DNA of 15,345 nucleotides, taken from assembly GCA_036845085.1 (NCBI GenBank), contig DAIUEN010000006.1:5119-20463 (forward strand), written 5' to 3'. A program made the position numbers and the translations under genes. This DNA is from Candidatus Nanopusillus sp. (GTDB taxonomy: Archaea > Nanobdellota > Nanobdellia > Nanobdellales > Nanobdellaceae). Every line of letters starts with the position of its first letter. Position 1 is the first letter of the stretch. The notes beneath the pieces are model-generated. The model saw only the letters and a program-made list of their open reading frames with translations, had not been told where the DNA came from and searched no databases. This document shows, in pieces, positions 2,019 to 5,749 of the stretch.

Positions 2019-3143
2019 TTATACTTTCCAATTTTTAATAGGAGCCCTTTCGAATATTAAATAATACAAAAAGTTATATATAAGAGCTATATCATATAAT
2101 AGCACATAAAAAGTAACAAAAAGAAGATAATATACCAGGTTGAATACTTTTTTTCTTTTTATAGCATCCAGAACTAATATAAAAATAAACTGTGTAAATA
2201 TGAGAGCTAAAATTGAGAAAATAAAGTATAAAAATCGATATATATCAAAAGGAGAAAATACTAACAGATATATTGGGCTTAATCCCACCATCGAATTATA
2301 TAAATTACTTCCAATTACATATATATAGTTTATAGGTAAAAATATTAATAAATAAAGCCAAAAAATAAAAGGTATCGAAATAATACCTATAAAAGATATT
2401 ATCAATAATGGATATCTAACAGATATTTCCACAATATCTTTAAAATGATAATTAATCACTTCGATTATAGAAAAAGTCCATCTAATTTTTTGACTAATTA
2501 GCTGACTTAAATTATCTAAGGGTTTTATACTAACAAAGATTGCATCAGATACCTTTATTCTTCCTTTAACACCCATAACTTTTAAGCATAAATCTATATC
2601 CTCTACATATACTTTACTATATCCTCCAACTTTTTCCCAGACATCTCTTTTTATTGCAAAGGCGCCACCATTCATTGTTATACTCTTTTTATATTTATTT
2701 ACAAAATATCCTATATATTGATAATATAACATATATTCCATATACATGACTTTTCCAATCCAATTAGAAGGAAGAATTTCTTTATAAAAATCTAGTATAT
2801 CTACTTCTTCTAATTCATTTACCAACTTATATAAGTCTATTTTTTCTATTTTAGCATCAGAATCTACAGAAATAATTATATCACCGGTTGAATATCTTAA
2901 ATCTTCCATTGTAGCATTTACTTTACCCCTTCTTACATAGGATATAACTATCTTTACGTTTTTAAAGTTTTTAAGAATATCTAAGGCTTTTTTAAAATCT
3001 TCTTCTGGCATATCTATAGAAATAATTATTTCTTTTAATTCTGAAGGATACTTATCTTCTAATATTTTTTGAATATTATGGATTAGGTATTCACTTTTTT
3101 TATATATTGGAAAAATAAATGTTATTTTTGGTAGTTGCTTCAT
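2019..3143 (-). CDS. Family 2 glycosyltransferase with a C-terminal multi-pass membrane domain; processive-type D,D,D,QxxRW signature
   Basis: The N-terminal GT-A features are FIFPIYKKSEYL, RRGKVNA, the DxD-like VDSDA, GGAFAIKR, VEDIDL and QKIRW. The C-terminal ~130 aa are highly hydrophobic, with several predicted TM helices. Confidence 0.7.
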   Translation of the reverse strand: MKQLPKITFIFPIYKKSEYLIHNIQKILEDKYPSELKEIIISIDMPEEDFKKALDILKNFKNVKIVISYVRRGKVNATMEDLRYSTGDIIISVDSDAKIEKIDLYKLVNELEEVDILDFYKEILPSNWIGKVMYMEYMLYYQYIGYFVNKYKKSITMNGGAFAIKRDVWEKVGGYSKVYVEDIDLCLKVMGVKGRIKVSDAIFVSIKPLDNLSQLISQKIRWTFSIIEVINYHFKDIVEISVRYPLLIISFIGIISIPFIFWLYLLIFLPINYIYVIGSNLYNSMVGLSPIYLLVFSPFDIYRFLYFIFSILALIFTQFIFILVLDAIKRKKVFNLVYYLLFVTFYVLLYDIALIYNFLYYLIFERAPIKNWKV

Positions 3144-3150
3144 TTAAATA
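3142..3150 (+). promoter_or_regulatory. Candidate TATA box (atttaaata) for the C/D box sRNA candidate
   Basis: The ATTTAAA core has its first base 31 nt upstream of the C box start (3173). This is the same spacing as the TATA-to-5'-end spacing at tRNA-Arg. The box overlaps the GT2 start codon on the opposite strand. Confidence 0.4.
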
Positions 3151-3165
3151 TATCTTAGTAAAAAT

Positions 3166-3173
3166 ATTTATAA
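3166..3173 (-). promoter_or_regulatory. Candidate TATA box (minus-strand ttataaat) for the GT2 gene
   Basis: It occupies -30..-23 relative to the GT2 ATG at 3143, consistent with a leaderless transcript and matching other genes in the window. Confidence 0.4.
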
Positions 3174-3223
3174 TGATGTAGGGTCAGAGTTGCTGACTAA
3201 TGATGATGTTCAGATACCGCTGA
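3173..3223 (+). ncRNA. Candidate C/D box sRNA (2'-O-methylation guide), ~51 nt
   Basis: The layout in order is as follows:
- C box AUGAUGU at 3173-3179, 6/7 to RUGAUGA.
- A 13-nt spacer at 3180-3192.
- D' box CUGA at 3193-3196.
- A 3-nt loop, cua.
- C' box AUGAUGA at 3200-3206, a perfect match.
- A 13-nt spacer at 3207-3219.
- D box CUGA at 3220-3223, followed by T5.

The U at C-box position 7 can wobble-pair with the G that precedes the D box. Of the RUGAUGA-like sites I spotted by eye on either strand, this is the only one with correctly spaced CUGA boxes. Confidence 0.6.
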
Positions 3224-5749
3224 TTTTTCTACCTTATATAATATCATTAATATAATATAGAAATATATAGTTTCTATTATATATATACCCAAGTTAAATA
3301 ACGTTGGTAATGATAACTTAGATAAAGCATTCAAAGCCGGTAAAGTAAATATTAATAATATAATAACTGCTATGATTAAAGATATGTAATAATTTTTCGA
3401 GCTAGTAAAATCTATCTTATATTTCTTCTGATAATATATGTATAAAACATATTGAGATGTCATTAAAAACAACATGGTTGAAAATGAATCGTAATTTGTA
3501 GCTAGTGATACAGTCAATGATGTTATCCCAATAAATATAGAATTTCTTAATAATTCAAATACAAAATTTTTGTCGATTATACGAACAAACTTTTCTTTTA
3601 AAACTTTTTCATCCATGATTTTACCTTCTCCCACAAGCAAAGATGTTAAGGTTTCTATAACTAAGTTCAAAATTAATATCTGTATTGCAGTAAAAGTTAT
3701 AGAATCATATATAAAATAGTTAATGGTAACTAAAATAAAAGCACCAAACATAGCAGAAACCATAACTAATAAGTAAGTTTTCAAAACAAATATTACTCTT
3801 TTACCTTCTTCTATTAGGTGCAATACTGCCGATAAACTATTATCCATTAAAATTACATTTGCGGACTCTTTAGCAATATCTGTAGCAGAGAATAAACTGA
3901 CCCCTACATGAGCAGATTTCAAAGATATTGCATCGTTCATGCCATCACCAATAAACATAACTTTCTTTCCATATTTTTTGAACAAATTTACAACTCTGTA
4001 CTTATCATATGGATCTGCCCTAGCTATAATCTTTACTTTCTGAAGTTTAGCATATAACTCTTCATCAGACATTTTCTTTATTTCTTCCCCCATCAAAAAT
4101 TCGGTATTCATTCCTACTTTATTAGCTACAAATTGGCAAACAAAAGGATCATCTCCACTTAATATATAAAAATCTACATCTAATTCTTTTATTTTTTCAT
4201 AACTTTCCTTAAGGTTTTCTCTTATAGGATCTTCTAAAATTAAAAATCCTAAAAATATCAAATTTTTTTCATCTTTATCAATATCAAAACTTTCTTTGTA
4301 GGCAAAGGCTATTATTTTATAACCACTTTTGGATAATTTTTCATTTAAATTTAATATATGATCTTTATATATCTCTATCTTCTCTATCTTATTATTTATA
4401 AATATGTAAGAACATGAATTAAGTACAGATCTTAAAGCCCCTCTCTGTATTAAAACGTATTTATTGTCTTTTTTTATTATAACAGAAGAAGATTTTTTAA
4501 AAGGATCAAAATATCTAACATTAATCTTTTCATGTAGATTTAATTGTTCATTACTGGATATATTATATATAGCTTTATCAACAGGATCAAAAAAGTGACC
4601 TTCTAACAAATTAACTTTATCCAGTGTATTATATATATACTCTAAGAAGTTTATGTATTCTTTTTTATCGACGAAAAAATTCTCTCTCAATACTTGATTA
4701 TCTTTTATAGTGTATAATAATCCATTATAATAAAAACCCGAAACTACTAGGGAATTATGAGTCAAAGTCCCTGTTTTATCTGATAAAATTACTTCTACAT
4801 GACCTATATCTTCCATAACTTTTGGACTTTTTACAAATACATTCTTTTTTCGTAGTTTATCCAAACTTAAGGTATATATCAATATCAATGCTATTGGTAA
4901 TCCTTCAGGAATCATTAATAAAGTTAAAGCAATAGAAAATATTATTGCATCTATTATAGTAAATGTATGTTTCAATATTGTAGCTATGAATATGAATAAA
5001 ATAGATATCGAAATAATTATAGAAACTGTACCAGCAAATTTATCGATCTCTTTCTGAAGATCTGTCTTTTCTAGTTTTTCTTCTTTTAATTTTTTATACA
5101 ATTTTCCAAAATATGTATTTAAACCTGTTTCTACCACAACACCAAGACAATATCCTTTGAGTATGAAAGTATTTGAAAATAGCATATTAGACATATTGCT
5201 TATAGGAACGTTTTCTGGTAAAACAGTATTATATTTATGTACTGGCTCTGATTCTCCAGTTAAAGAACTTTCATCAACTAAAAGATCCTCCGACTCTATT
5301 ATACGAATATCTGCAGGTACTTTCTCCCCATATCTTAATATTATTATATCTCCTGGAACTAAATCCTCAGAATTAACAATAACTTTCTTTCCGTTCCGGA
5401 TGACCAAACATTTTTTTTCTAAACTTTTTTCTAAACTTTTTATAACCTTTATTGATCTATATTGCTGATATAAATCAAATAAAATATATATAAATACAAA
5501 AGACAAAATGAAGATCCCTTCATAAAACCCTTTAAATATAAAAGATAAAACTGCAGCAAATACAAACATAAGCAAAAATTTGTTTTTAAATTCTTCTATT
5601 AACACATCTAAAAATTCATTTCTTCCTTCTATTTTATTTTTTCCATATTTTTTTAGTTTCTGTAAATATTCATCTTCTTTTAGACCATCTTTAGAAGTAT
5701 TTAATTCTTTAAATATCTCTTCTATGGTCATAGAATGCCATTTACTCAT
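3197..5749 (-). CDS. Cation-transporting P-type ATPase (P2-type-like)
   Basis: The diagnostic motifs are TGES (SLTGESEPV), PEGLP in TM4 (IPEGLPIAL), the phosphorylation site SDKTGTLTHN, the hinge FIGDGMNDAISL, and an N-terminal cation-ATPase domain (HSMTIEEIFKELNTSKDGLKEDEYLQKLKKYGKNKI). TM6-like NLVIET resembles the SERCA-type ion-site region. Ion specificity cannot be read from sequence alone. The C-terminus ends in SEHHH. Confidence 0.9.
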   Translation of the reverse strand: MSKWHSMTIEEIFKELNTSKDGLKEDEYLQKLKKYGKNKIEGRNEFLDVLIEEFKNKFLLMFVFAAVLSFIFKGFYEGIFILSFVFIYILFDLYQQYRSIKVIKSLEKSLEKKCLVIRNGKKVIVNSEDLVPGDIIILRYGEKVPADIRIIESEDLLVDESSLTGESEPVHKYNTVLPENVPISNMSNMLFSNTFILKGYCLGVVVETGLNTYFGKLYKKLKEEKLEKTDLQKEIDKFAGTVSIIISISILFIFIATILKHTFTIIDAIIFSIALTLLMIPEGLPIALILIYTLSLDKLRKKNVFVKSPKVMEDIGHVEVILSDKTGTLTHNSLVVSGFYYNGLLYTIKDNQVLRENFFVDKKEYINFLEYIYNTLDKVNLLEGHFFDPVDKAIYNISSNEQLNLHEKINVRYFDPFKKSSSVIIKKDNKYVLIQRGALRSVLNSCSYIFINNKIEKIEIYKDHILNLNEKLSKSGYKIIAFAYKESFDIDKDEKNLIFLGFLILEDPIRENLKESYEKIKELDVDFYILSGDDPFVCQFVANKVGMNTEFLMGEEIKKMSDEELYAKLQKVKIIARADPYDKYRVVNLFKKYGKKVMFIGDGMNDAISLKSAHVGVSLFSATDIAKESANVILMDNSLSAVLHLIEEGKRVIFVLKTYLLVMVSAMFGAFILVTINYFIYDSITFTAIQILILNLVIETLTSLLVGEGKIMDEKVLKEKFVRIIDKNFVFELLRNSIFIGITSLTVSLATNYDSFSTMLFLMTSQYVLYIYYQKKYKIDFTSSKNYYISLIIAVIILLIFTLPALNALSKLSLPTLFNLGIYIIETIYFYIILMILYKVEKSAVSEHHH
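3224..3228 (+). terminator. Oligo-T (T5) tract directly after the D box
   Basis: The sequence ttttt immediately follows the CUGA D box. Archaeal RNA polymerase terminates at oligo-T tracts. Confidence 0.4.
5419..5442 (-). repeat. In-frame tandem 12-nt duplication inside the ATPase gene (KSLEKSLEK)
   Basis: ctaaactttttt is followed by ctaaacttttta, matching at 11 of 12 positions. It translates on the minus strand to the repeated SLEK. Confidence 0.8.

Follow-up and report, generated by a model that had tools for sequence, protein, structure and literature searches.

Among the closest described systems are the C/D box sRNAs of Nanoarchaeum equitans. Most of these RNAs overlap mRNAs, box A of this organism has the form TTTAAA and lies ~26 nt upstream of the transcription start site, T-stretch terminators have been described for its small RNA genes, and both fibrillarin (NEQ125) and Nop56 (NEQ342) are encoded and expressed (Randau 2012, Genome Biol 13:R63). 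Spacers in the verified N. equitans sRNAs are mostly 12–14 nt long, a few being shorter. One of these RNAs, sRNA26, gave 55,200 reads in N. equitans (Randau 2012, Genome Biol 13:R63). More generally, around half of the C/D sRNAs in archaea act as double guides whose targets lie less than 100 nt apart, and helices H68, H69 and H71 of 23S rRNA are published methylation hotspots (2015, BMC Genomics 16:632; Breuer et al. 2021, Front Microbiol 12:654029). We found no published sRNA catalogue for the Nanopusillaceae-like lineage in the literature.

Positions 3170–3228 on the + strand of the window (the whole 15,345-nucleotide stretch of Candidatus Nanopusillus sp. DNA analysed here) most probably constitute a gene with its own transcription, encoding a ~55-nt archaeal C/D box double-guide sRNA of a Nanopusillaceae-like nanoarchaeon, a reading to which we assign a probability of about 0.88. 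A C/D layout had been proposed at this site by a sequence-only reading of the window, and every coordinate of its boxes and spacers agrees with the sequence. Over the 51 bases from 3173 to 3223 the layout was verified base for base as AUGAUGU, 13 nt, CUGA, cua, AUGAUGA, 13 nt, CUGA, followed by T5. Box C, AUGAUGU (DNA ATGATGT; 3173–3179), fits the consensus RUGAUGA at 6 of 7 positions, A7 being replaced by U. The D' guide, a 13-nt spacer AGGGTCAGAGTTG (RNA AGGGUCAGAGUUG; 3180–3192), is followed by box D' CUGA (3193–3196), which is invariant in 9/9 homologues and in sRNA26, and by the D'–C' linker cua (3197–3199). Box C' AUGAUGA (3200–3206) precedes the D guide, again 13 nt, TGTTCAGATACCG (RNA UGUUCAGAUACCG; 3207–3219), and the element is completed by box D CUGA (3220–3223), found in every homologue. 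The TTTTT stretch that follows (3224–3228) is a likely archaeal oligo-T termination signal; the relatives, too, have T-rich tracts 3' of box D. In archaeal C/D box sRNAs the internal D' and C' boxes are joined by a short linker (3–9 nt) that can form a K-loop, and the 3-nt cua lies within this range. The identical sequence recurs in a second, independent assembly (L046, SRR5468563), which rules out an assembly error as the origin of the AUGAUGU C box. The A7 to U change has a parallel in N. equitans sRNA13 (Neq sR13), an abundantly expressed RNA (45,100 reads) with the same non-consensus box but other guides and targets (16S rRNA); the sequence-only reading had noted that this U can still wobble-pair with the G before box D.

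Upstream of the element, a putative box A promoter element of TATA-like form, TTTAAA (3143–3148, + strand; ATTTAAA in its longer form, 3142–3148) lies 30 nt before box C, or 31 nt when counted as ATTTAAA. The predicted transcription start, at about A3170, is 26–27 nt from box A and would give a short 5' leader (3170–3172); the profile match described below also begins at 3170. TTTAAA is found at −34, −30 and −31 of the window's three tRNA genes and at −30 of the sRNA element, so that the spacing first likened to that at tRNA-Arg is comparable at all three tRNA genes. This recurrence contrasts with a TTTAAA frequency of 0.00215 per nt. Box A adjoins CAT (3141–3143), which is the GT2 start codon read in antisense.

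The element occupies the junction between two genes of the − strand, those for a P-type cation ATPase (3197–5749) and, downstream of it, a GT2 glycosyltransferase (2019–3143). The gap between them is 53 nt, and the last 27 nt of the ATPase coding sequence, including the stop codon, run antisense to the sRNA's 3' half, the same values as in the sequence-only reading. All eight distinct relatives bearing this junction, likewise nano-sized archaea, carry the same RNA gene there, with C, D', C' and D boxes, spacers of 12–14 nt and a linker of 3–4 nt, which bears out the conservation of the boxes that had been proposed as a check. Profile R1, for which 23 N. equitans C/D sRNAs verified by RNA-seq were used and sRNA26 was excluded, recognizes the relatives' junction at E < 0.02 in 7/8 loci; L041 gives a partial match only (E = 0.83). 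Gene order around the junction is retained as well: TIM–ATPase–GT2–RNase Z-like in 8/8 relatives, and the longer run RpoD–ValRS–TIM–ATPase–GT2–RNase Z-like in L023, L024 and L025. The D' guide core GGTCAGAGTT is kept in 7/8 distinct relatives, Nanobdella L025 being without its first G only. The D guide reads AGTTCAGGTACCGG in L040 and L041 and AGTTCAGGTACCGA in L043, and that of the window is a one-substitution variant.

Comparison with N. equitans sRNA26 (snoscan sRNA19; Randau 2012, Genome Biol 13:R63, Additional file 2) reveals a shared architecture of C, 13 nt, D', 3-nt linker, C', 13–14 nt and D. The D guide of sRNA26, GGUUCAGGUACCGG, is the counterpart of the window's, 12–13 of 14 guide positions being common to both. 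The D halves read GTGATGT GGTTCAGGTACCGG CTGA in sRNA26, GTGATGT AGTTCAGGTACCGG CTGA in L040 and ATGATGA TGTTCAGATACCG CTGA in the window. Both guides have the same predicted target in 23S helix 68 (N. equitans Um1955), but the register of the window clade is 1 nt off that of sRNA26 (A1848 versus U1847 equivalent). The ends are unpaired in both RNAs. The D' guides, in contrast, are unrelated: that of sRNA26, TCGTTTACCGGCA, is directed at 23S G1989, whereas the window's is predicted to be directed at the H69 loop, ~15–20 nt further 3'. The recorded contexts also differ, sRNA26 being listed between NEQ455 and NEQ457 and the window gene lying at the ATPase–GT2 junction. Their sequences are compatible with either partial homology or a guide swap. 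The combination of H68 and H69 loop guides is absent from the N. equitans sRNA list. The window sRNA is very probably an ordinary double-guide C/D RNA, in a lineage known to have the class.

The D' guide is complementary to the loop of 23S helix 69, UAACUCUGACCCU (E. coli 1911–1923 equivalent), with the U1915 equivalent as its N+5 nucleotide, and the D guide is complementary to helix 68, (C/U)GGUAUCUGAAC (E. coli 1844–1855 equivalent), with the A1848 equivalent at N+5. Both targets were combined in a search pattern of 29 bases set beforehand, GGTATCTGAAC-N30-55-AACTCTGAC-N3-8-TAAGGTAGC. It matched 11 metagenome contigs, 11/11 of them archaeal LSU (23S) rRNA, in which 42 nt separate the two targets; aligned to E. 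coli rrlH, these fall in H68 and the H69 loop. These rRNAs are surrogates that belong to metagenome archaea (locus GC ~0.5) and not to this genome; they were picked by the pattern itself, so that shuffle statistics computed on them are not independent. With them the D' guide forms 13/13 pairs in the H69 loop (one G–U; A–U at N+5) and the D guide 12–13/13 pairs in H68 (U–A at N+5). Placement of the guides in rRNA, another check put forward by the sequence-only reading, is thus obtained for both in archaeal (surrogate) 23S. The D guide of Nanobdella aerobiophila (L025) has no match in the surrogate rRNAs. Predicted targets less than 100 nt apart in a subunit-interface hotspot, sites assigned by the N+5 rule and a predicted length of ~50–55 nt would be features that the window sRNA has in common with published archaeal double guides (2015, BMC Genomics 16:632; Breuer et al. 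2021, Front Microbiol 12:654029).

If the RNA behaves like other members of its family, its C/D motif would fold into a K-turn and its C'/D' motif into a K-loop, to which L7Ae, Nop5 and fibrillarin would bind. The window itself encodes none of these three proteins. The two 13-nt guides would then pair with sites 42 nt apart in 23S domain IV, helix 68 for the D guide and the helix 69 loop for the D' guide. In each duplex fibrillarin would 2'-O-methylate the nucleotide opposite the fifth guide residue, counted upstream from box D or D'. Applied here, this fifth-position rule predicts methylation at the E. coli A1848 and U1915 equivalents. The twin pairing may also help the subunit-interface region to fold locally. 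That the gene is transcribed, that its RNA assembles into an RNP and guides methylation, and which nucleotides precisely are targeted, we infer only by analogy with the family.

Antisense overlap with the ATPase raises the question of whether a genuine C/D sRNA here acts mainly in cis. Perfectly complementary to the ATPase–GT2 transcript, it would pair with the mRNA around the ATPase stop codon or direct 2'-O-methylation there, tuning termination, stability or GT2 expression, with rRNA pairing secondary. In each of the relatives the sRNA runs antisense to the 3' end of the ATPase gene, a TGA stop falls within the D-guide duplex in 5/8 of them (L023, L024, L037, L038 and L040) and a TAA stop occupies the equivalent position in Nanobdella L025; moreover, the cis site is the only complementarity to the sRNA of at least 10 nt within the window. 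Such complementarity, however, is an automatic product of gene overlap, and overlap with mRNAs is usual for N. equitans C/D sRNAs (Randau 2012, Genome Biol 13:R63). Nor does the position of the ATPase stop stay fixed relative to the guide among relatives, whereas the guide cores stay complementary to rRNA, and sRNA26 shares the D guide at a different recorded locus. We consider a mainly cis-acting RNA very improbable. It is likewise very unlikely that the RNP, besides guiding rRNA methylation, also 2'-O-methylates or pairs with the ATPase mRNA at its last sense codon and stop region; if true, a ribosome-modification guide would thereby be tied to how an operon for a membrane ATPase and a glycosyltransferase is expressed.

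The window copy departs from its relatives in two respects, and these could be taken as signs of a real family whose member here is losing function. Box C is ATGATGA or GTGATGA in the relatives, the window alone of the nine homologues being non-consensus, and the D' guide is 1 nt out of register with that of all relatives, owing to an indel pair in the D' spacer that is also unique among the nine. Decay is nevertheless very improbable. The four boxes, the two spacer lengths, TTTAAA and T5 are all intact, AUGAUGU is the C box of the abundant N. equitans sRNA13, and the window's profile R1 score is the highest among the homologues. Moreover, the shifted D' guide is the very one that forms 13/13 pairs with the H69 loop of the surrogate rRNA. 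For a functional double-guide sRNA, the consequence of the 1-nt D' register shift is that predicted methylation would move from the C1914 to the U1915 equivalent. Register shifts of 1 nt between clades might, with low probability, represent stepwise retargeting of methylation, both in the H69 loop (C1914 to U1915) and in H68 (U1847 to A1848).

Conservation of this DNA might instead be imposed by the protein operon, through the ATPase C terminus, a translational-coupling or intercistronic element, or the GT2 promoter. The ATPase, GT2 and RNase Z-like genes are co-oriented with short gaps, which makes − strand transcription of the spacer probable, and a TATA-like TTATAAATA lies on that strand ~30 nt before the GT2 ATG. 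Yet the alignment is invariant precisely at the C, D', C' and D boxes and in the guide cores, and each of the two cores has its complement in 23S rRNA. Furthermore, the ATPase stop falls at position 38, 25 or −8 of the sRNA, in three frames, and the tails are unrelated (GISGI*, SAVSEHHH*, HTSANSDHHHNK* and SQSVPELHH*). With the stop at three places and in all three frames, the constrained element is the RNA and not the protein tail, and we regard constraint by the operon as highly unlikely.

These comparisons also bear on the natural His tail of the window's ATPase, which ends in SAVSEHHH*. The linker cua is the antisense of its TAG stop codon, and box C' together with 3207–3208 is the antisense of the His-His-His codons. 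The ATPase frame would simply run on into the sRNA gene until a stop is reached, which would yield the SAVSEHHH tail. Most relatives have no His tail on their ATPase. The proposal that the His3 tail is the antisense of AUGAUGAUG is therefore upheld and can be generalized, since the relatives' tails vary in frame and length while the DNA is kept. The His-rich tail is very probably a by-product of overlap with the sRNA gene.

A strict C/D regular expression matched the window once and matched 0/2000 dinucleotide-preserving shuffles. Profile R1 aligned to 3170–3226 over model positions 3–57 of 58 with 25.2 bits (E ~1.5e-7). This was its only significant match in the window, the runner-up reaching 6.5 bits; a predictor or covariance-model search had been suggested at the outset, and the N. 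equitans profile selects this site alone. In Rfam, only the archaeal C/D families sR5 (RF01304), sR2 (RF01139), sR11, sR35, sR3 and sR1 span the whole element, aligning end to end over 3166–3225 through all four boxes. Their scores were 11–19 bits (best 19.3 versus 40 for sR5), and none reached the gathering thresholds (39–60). These sR families are guide-specific and come from other archaea, and the window element belongs to none of them. Chance mimicry by an AT-rich spacer, a His run (CAT CAT CAT, antisense AUGAUGAUG) and two common CTGA motifs, with no RNA gene present, could draw on the shortness of the boxes, the coincidence of box C' with His codons and the sub-threshold Rfam scores, but it has a negligible probability given the shuffles, the profile E of ~1e-7 and the absence of the His tail from most relatives, and was set aside as effectively refuted by conservation, the same layout and guides recurring at the junction of eight distinct relatives whose ATPases are only 41–46% identical.

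The candidate C/D box sRNA at window positions 3170-3228 (+) displays every sequence-level feature of its family, target complementarity being judged on surrogate rRNAs, and would work like a standard archaeal double-guide RNA. It lies at the junction between genes for a P-type ATPase (850 aa, 3197-5749, minus strand, C terminus ...SAVSEHHH*) and a GT2 glycosyltransferase (minus strand, start at 3143). The layout proposed by the sequence-only reading matches the sequence exactly. A box ATTTAAA (3142-3148) precedes the C box AUGAUGU (3173-3179), the first 13-nt spacer or D' guide, AGGGUCAGAGUUG (3180-3192), the D' box CUGA (3193-3196), the linker cua (3197-3199), the C' box AUGAUGA (3200-3206), the second 13-nt spacer or D guide, UGUUCAGAUACCG (3207-3219), the D box CUGA (3220-3223) and a T5 tract (3224-3228), all on the plus strand. 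The 53-nt gap between the two genes and the 27-nt overlap with the ATPase are likewise correct, and the His3 tail of the ATPase is the antisense of AUGAUGAUG (three His codons), its TAG stop being the antisense of the linker. The A to U change at position 7 of the C box falls outside the tandem sheared G-A pairs. This unusual box is real, since an independent assembly of the same organism, a 1.85 kb Logan contig (SRR5468563) reached via GT2, is identical in sequence to the window. An AUGAUGU box C is also found in the abundant Nanoarchaeum equitans sRNA13 (Randau 2012). No terminal C/D stem is evident in the window element; the N. equitans sRNAs likewise have unpaired ends (Randau 2012).

The same element is present at the ATPase/GT2 junction, on the ATPase-antisense strand, in all eight distinct relatives. 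The gene order TIM-ATPase-GT2-RNase Z-like is kept in every relative fetched (loci L023, L024, L025, L037, L038/39, L040, L041/42 and L043/44), with ValRS, or ValRS and RpoD, upstream of TIM-ATPase in most. The boxes, whose recurrence in relatives had been put forward as a check, are found at the junction in 8/8, and boxes and guide cores form invariant alignment columns. The relatives' consensus comprises a C box A/GTGATGA, a D' guide xGGTCAGAGTTAG (AGTCAGAGTTAG in Nanobdella), a D' box CTGA, a linker of 3-4 nt, a C' box A/GTGATGA/T and a D guide of 13 nt (xxTTCAGATACCx) or 14 nt (AGTTCAGGTACCGG/A), followed by CTGA.

Complements of both guides, predicted as targets by the sequence-only reading, could be placed in archaeal 23S rRNA, in helix 68 and in the loop of helix 69 of surrogate rRNAs. 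In its D half the element is homologous to N. equitans sRNA26 (55,200 reads; AAATGATGA TCGTTTACCGGCA CTGA TTA GTGATGT GGTTCAGGTACCGG CTGA), the D guide of which is predicted to direct methylation of 23S U1955 in CCGGUmACCUGAACCC (Randau 2012). Exact guide strings found no match in the text and supplement of that paper because of one substitution; the homology was seen on reading the table. The D' half differs, being directed at the helix 69 loop here and at G1989 in sRNA26. The D guide takes the form TTCAGATACC (target GGUAUCUGAA) in the window and in relatives L023, L024 and L037/38, AGTTCAGGTACCGG in L040 and L041, and AGTTCAGGTACCGA in L043. The D' target C(U)AACUCUGACC resembles the archaeal helix 69 loop, which the N. 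equitans target strings put ~42 nt downstream of the D target. We therefore predicted a composite pattern, GGTATCTGAAC-N30-55-AACTCTGAC-N3-8-TAAGGTAGC, before scanning the metagenome collection. It yielded 11 metagenome matches, all at the same place in archaeal LSU rRNA genes (Rfam 950-2366 bits), these rRNAs being those of other, metagenome archaea and not the host's own 23S. GGUAUCUGAAC aligns to E. coli rrlH 1845-1855, the 5' strand of helix 68, and UAACUCUGAC to rrlH 1911-1920, the helix 69 loop, where E. coli has UAACUAUAAC. On the surrogate rRNAs the window D' guide forms 13/13 pairs, one a terminal G-U, and the D guide 12-13/13; by the N+5 rule, the predicted methylation sites correspond to U1915 for the D' guide and A1848 for the D guide. 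A guide-rRNA shuffle test with G-U allowed is weak (11-bp runs in 10-20% of shuffles) and, because the rRNAs were chosen by pattern, circular, so that it locates the sites and carries no independent significance. No trans target is present in the window, its three tRNAs included. Helices 68, 69 and 71, at the subunit interface, are hotspots of archaeal 2'-O-methylation, and roughly one archaeal C/D sRNA in two is a double guide whose targets lie <100 nt apart (Dennis et al. 2015; Breuer et al. 2021). A metagenome contig (L036) has an Rfam 5.8S rRNA match at 2720-2877 (+) (48.3 bits versus a threshold of 42), ~220 nt downstream of the end of an archaeal 23S gene. Either another LSU copy beginning there or an unusual rRNA arrangement in that archaeon may explain it.

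A cis-antisense role of the sRNA on the ATPase-GT2 mRNA is conceivable but unlikely. Any gene overlap of this kind automatically brings complementarity to the mRNA, and overlap with mRNAs is seen for most N. equitans C/D sRNAs (Randau 2012). What is conserved in the guides is their fit to rRNA, and an N. equitans sRNA at another locus shares the D guide. As a guide of rRNA methylation, the RNA would, by analogy with the family, fold its C/D and C'/D' motifs into a K-turn and a K-loop bound by L7Ae, with Nop5 and fibrillarin completing the RNP. Pairing of each guide with nascent 23S rRNA would mark the ribose facing guide position 5 for methylation by fibrillarin; binding of both sites at once, 42 nt apart, may aid folding of helices 68 and 69 (Dennis et al. 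2015). Nothing usable on fibrillarin in Nanopusillus or Nanobdella came out of the literature searched.

Small differences in guide register would move the predicted sites. The window D' guide (3180-3192) is shifted by 1 nt relative to all relatives, to U1915 rather than the C1914 equivalent. Against L023 8578-8590 and the others it has an insertion balanced by a deletion (AGGGTCAGAGTT-G versus A-GGTCAGAGTTAG), such that the predicted methylation slides 1 nt within the helix 69 loop. A 1-nt shift also separates the clade with a 13-nt D guide from N. equitans and the 14-nt clade (L040, L041 and L043), the predicted site being the equivalent of A1848 in the former and of U1847 in the latter. The Nanobdella D guide ATTTAAACACCT (L025 8494-8505, minus strand, AP019769.1) differs from the TTCAGATACC of other relatives by transitions only and finds no match at helix 68 of the surrogate rRNAs. 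It may have co-evolved with its own helix 68, have been retargeted or be dead; if it co-varies, helix 68 of Nanobdella is predicted to read approximately AGGUGUUUAAAU.

We built a profile, on sequence only, from 23 RNA-seq-detected N. equitans C/D sRNAs (Randau 2012, Additional file 2; alignment A2), leaving out sRNA26, a homologue. With filters off, its only significant match in the window is 3170-3226 (+), at 25.2 bits (E ~1.5e-7, model positions 3-57 of 58), the next-best scoring 6.5 bits (E = 0.13). At gathering thresholds Rfam matched only three tRNAs in the window. Below threshold, the element gives full-length alignments to archaeal C/D families, topped by sR5 (19.3 bits versus a threshold of 40), scores that are expected since those families are guide-specific; it belongs to none of them. 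Recognition by a covariance model or predictor, as the sequence-only reading had suggested, was borne out by the N. equitans profile and not by Rfam, where all C/D families stayed under threshold. A minus-strand Rfam match to Tetrahymena H/ACA RNA (24.7 versus 100 bits) was set aside as noise. The window element is unlikely to be a decaying gene copy, because every signal is intact and it has the best profile score among the homologues. A strict full C/D'/C'/D regular expression matches once in the window, both strands scanned, and in 0/2000 dinucleotide-preserving shuffles (0.2% for a relaxed version); these and the profile statistics, together with conservation, exclude chance resemblance.

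The ATPase ends differently over the same DNA block. Six of the eight distinct relatives have the stop at sRNA position 38 (37 in Nanobdella); five of these have a TGA inside the D guide, and Nanobdella has TAA. In the window and L043 the stop falls within the linker, at position 25; in L041, whose ORF spans the entire sRNA, it precedes the C box by 8 nt. ATPase ORFs enter the block in all three reading frames. The tails (window 3197-3228, minus strand; L023 8537-8559; L041 5088-5159; L043 5556-5583) vary in frame, length and sequence, since each ORF runs on into the antisense sRNA gene as far as the next stop, and they are unrelated: GISGI*, NVRGI*, SAVSEHHH*, SQSVPELHH* and HTSANSDHHHNK*. 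His runs (HHH, DHHH, LHH) arise where the ATPase frame reads the antisense of the C or C' box. Coding or operon constraint as the cause of the conserved DNA is excluded by this variability of frame and stop position. Since the block is kept while stop and frame vary, we infer that the junction DNA is constrained as an RNA gene and that the protein tail is a passenger. The earlier remark on a 'dual-use' sequence is upheld and extends to the relatives. This is a clean case of a protein's variable C-terminal tail being dictated by a neighbouring antisense RNA gene, and it is relevant to annotation because ATPase ends such as HHH are read-through into an sRNA gene, not functional tags.

The hexamer TTTAAA (3143-3148) starts 30 nt upstream of the C box. 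Exact copies at 512-517, 10043-10048 and 14185-14190 start 34, 30 and 31 nt upstream of the window's three tRNA genes, against a background frequency of 0.00215 per nt, which substantiates the tRNA-like spacing noted earlier. In N. equitans, tRNA genes have a box A TTTAAA ~26 nt upstream of where transcription begins, and some C/D sRNA genes have their own promoter and T-stretch terminator (Randau 2012). Judged from the window, box A of this organism has a clear consensus and spacing of its own, which match those published for N. equitans exactly. From this spacing, transcription is predicted to start near A3170, leaving 3 nt ahead of the C box, and such a 3-nt leader is typical of N. equitans RNAs. 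T5 directly follows the window D box, where relatives too have T-rich tracts. Box A spacing and T5 tract make an independent transcription unit a well-supported prediction. A scan for sigma-70 promoters and intrinsic terminators is uninformative in an archaeon. The sRNA box A adjoins the GT2 start codon. On the minus strand, TTATAAATA (3165-3173), ~30 nt upstream of the GT2 ATG, might serve as a divergent promoter of a GT2 mRNA that is nearly leaderless and overlaps the sRNA 5' end, a reading that is speculative because the DNA is so AT-rich.

The nearest relatives of the ATPase (41-46% identity) are in Nanopusillaceae MAGs, the Nanoarchaeota complete genome AP031373.1 and Nanobdella aerobiophila AP019769.1. 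A scan of genome contigs with the ATPase found no close relative; its matches, at 23-33% identity, were confined to Bathyarchaeia and one Hodarchaeota locus. G+C in the window is 24-31%, and its genes include those for archaeal RpoD, an archaeal-type TIM, a class I tRNA synthetase and three tRNAs. Relatives, gene content and composition together identify the host as a divergent Nanopusillaceae-like nanoarchaeon. The ATPase has an identical protein, P0001, in the protein collection (contig of 20,463 bp; sources NCBI, JGI and ENA). N. equitans, of the same phylum, has 26-27 verified C/D sRNAs in 490 kb (Randau 2012), so one in 15 kb is unremarkable. The literature searched contained no sRNA catalogue for Nanopusillaceae or Nanobdella, and the gene has therefore probably been unannotated so far. 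It adds a conserved guide RNA to these poorly characterized ultra-small symbiotic archaea, with two predicted ribose methylations where the ribosomal subunits meet, one in helix 68 and one in the loop of helix 69. Knowledge of C/D RNPs is unchanged, and a specialist would see a tidy annotation result and no surprise.

Elsewhere in the window, an ORF at 27-509 (+) has a Gln/Pro-rich, internally repeated N terminus (MQTQPVQQQN...PFMQTQPVQQQN) and a Lys/Glu-rich C terminus that is probably a coiled coil. A mechanical 81-aa ORF at 14235-14480 (+) overlaps the same-strand tRNA-Val (14216-14287) and is almost certainly spurious.
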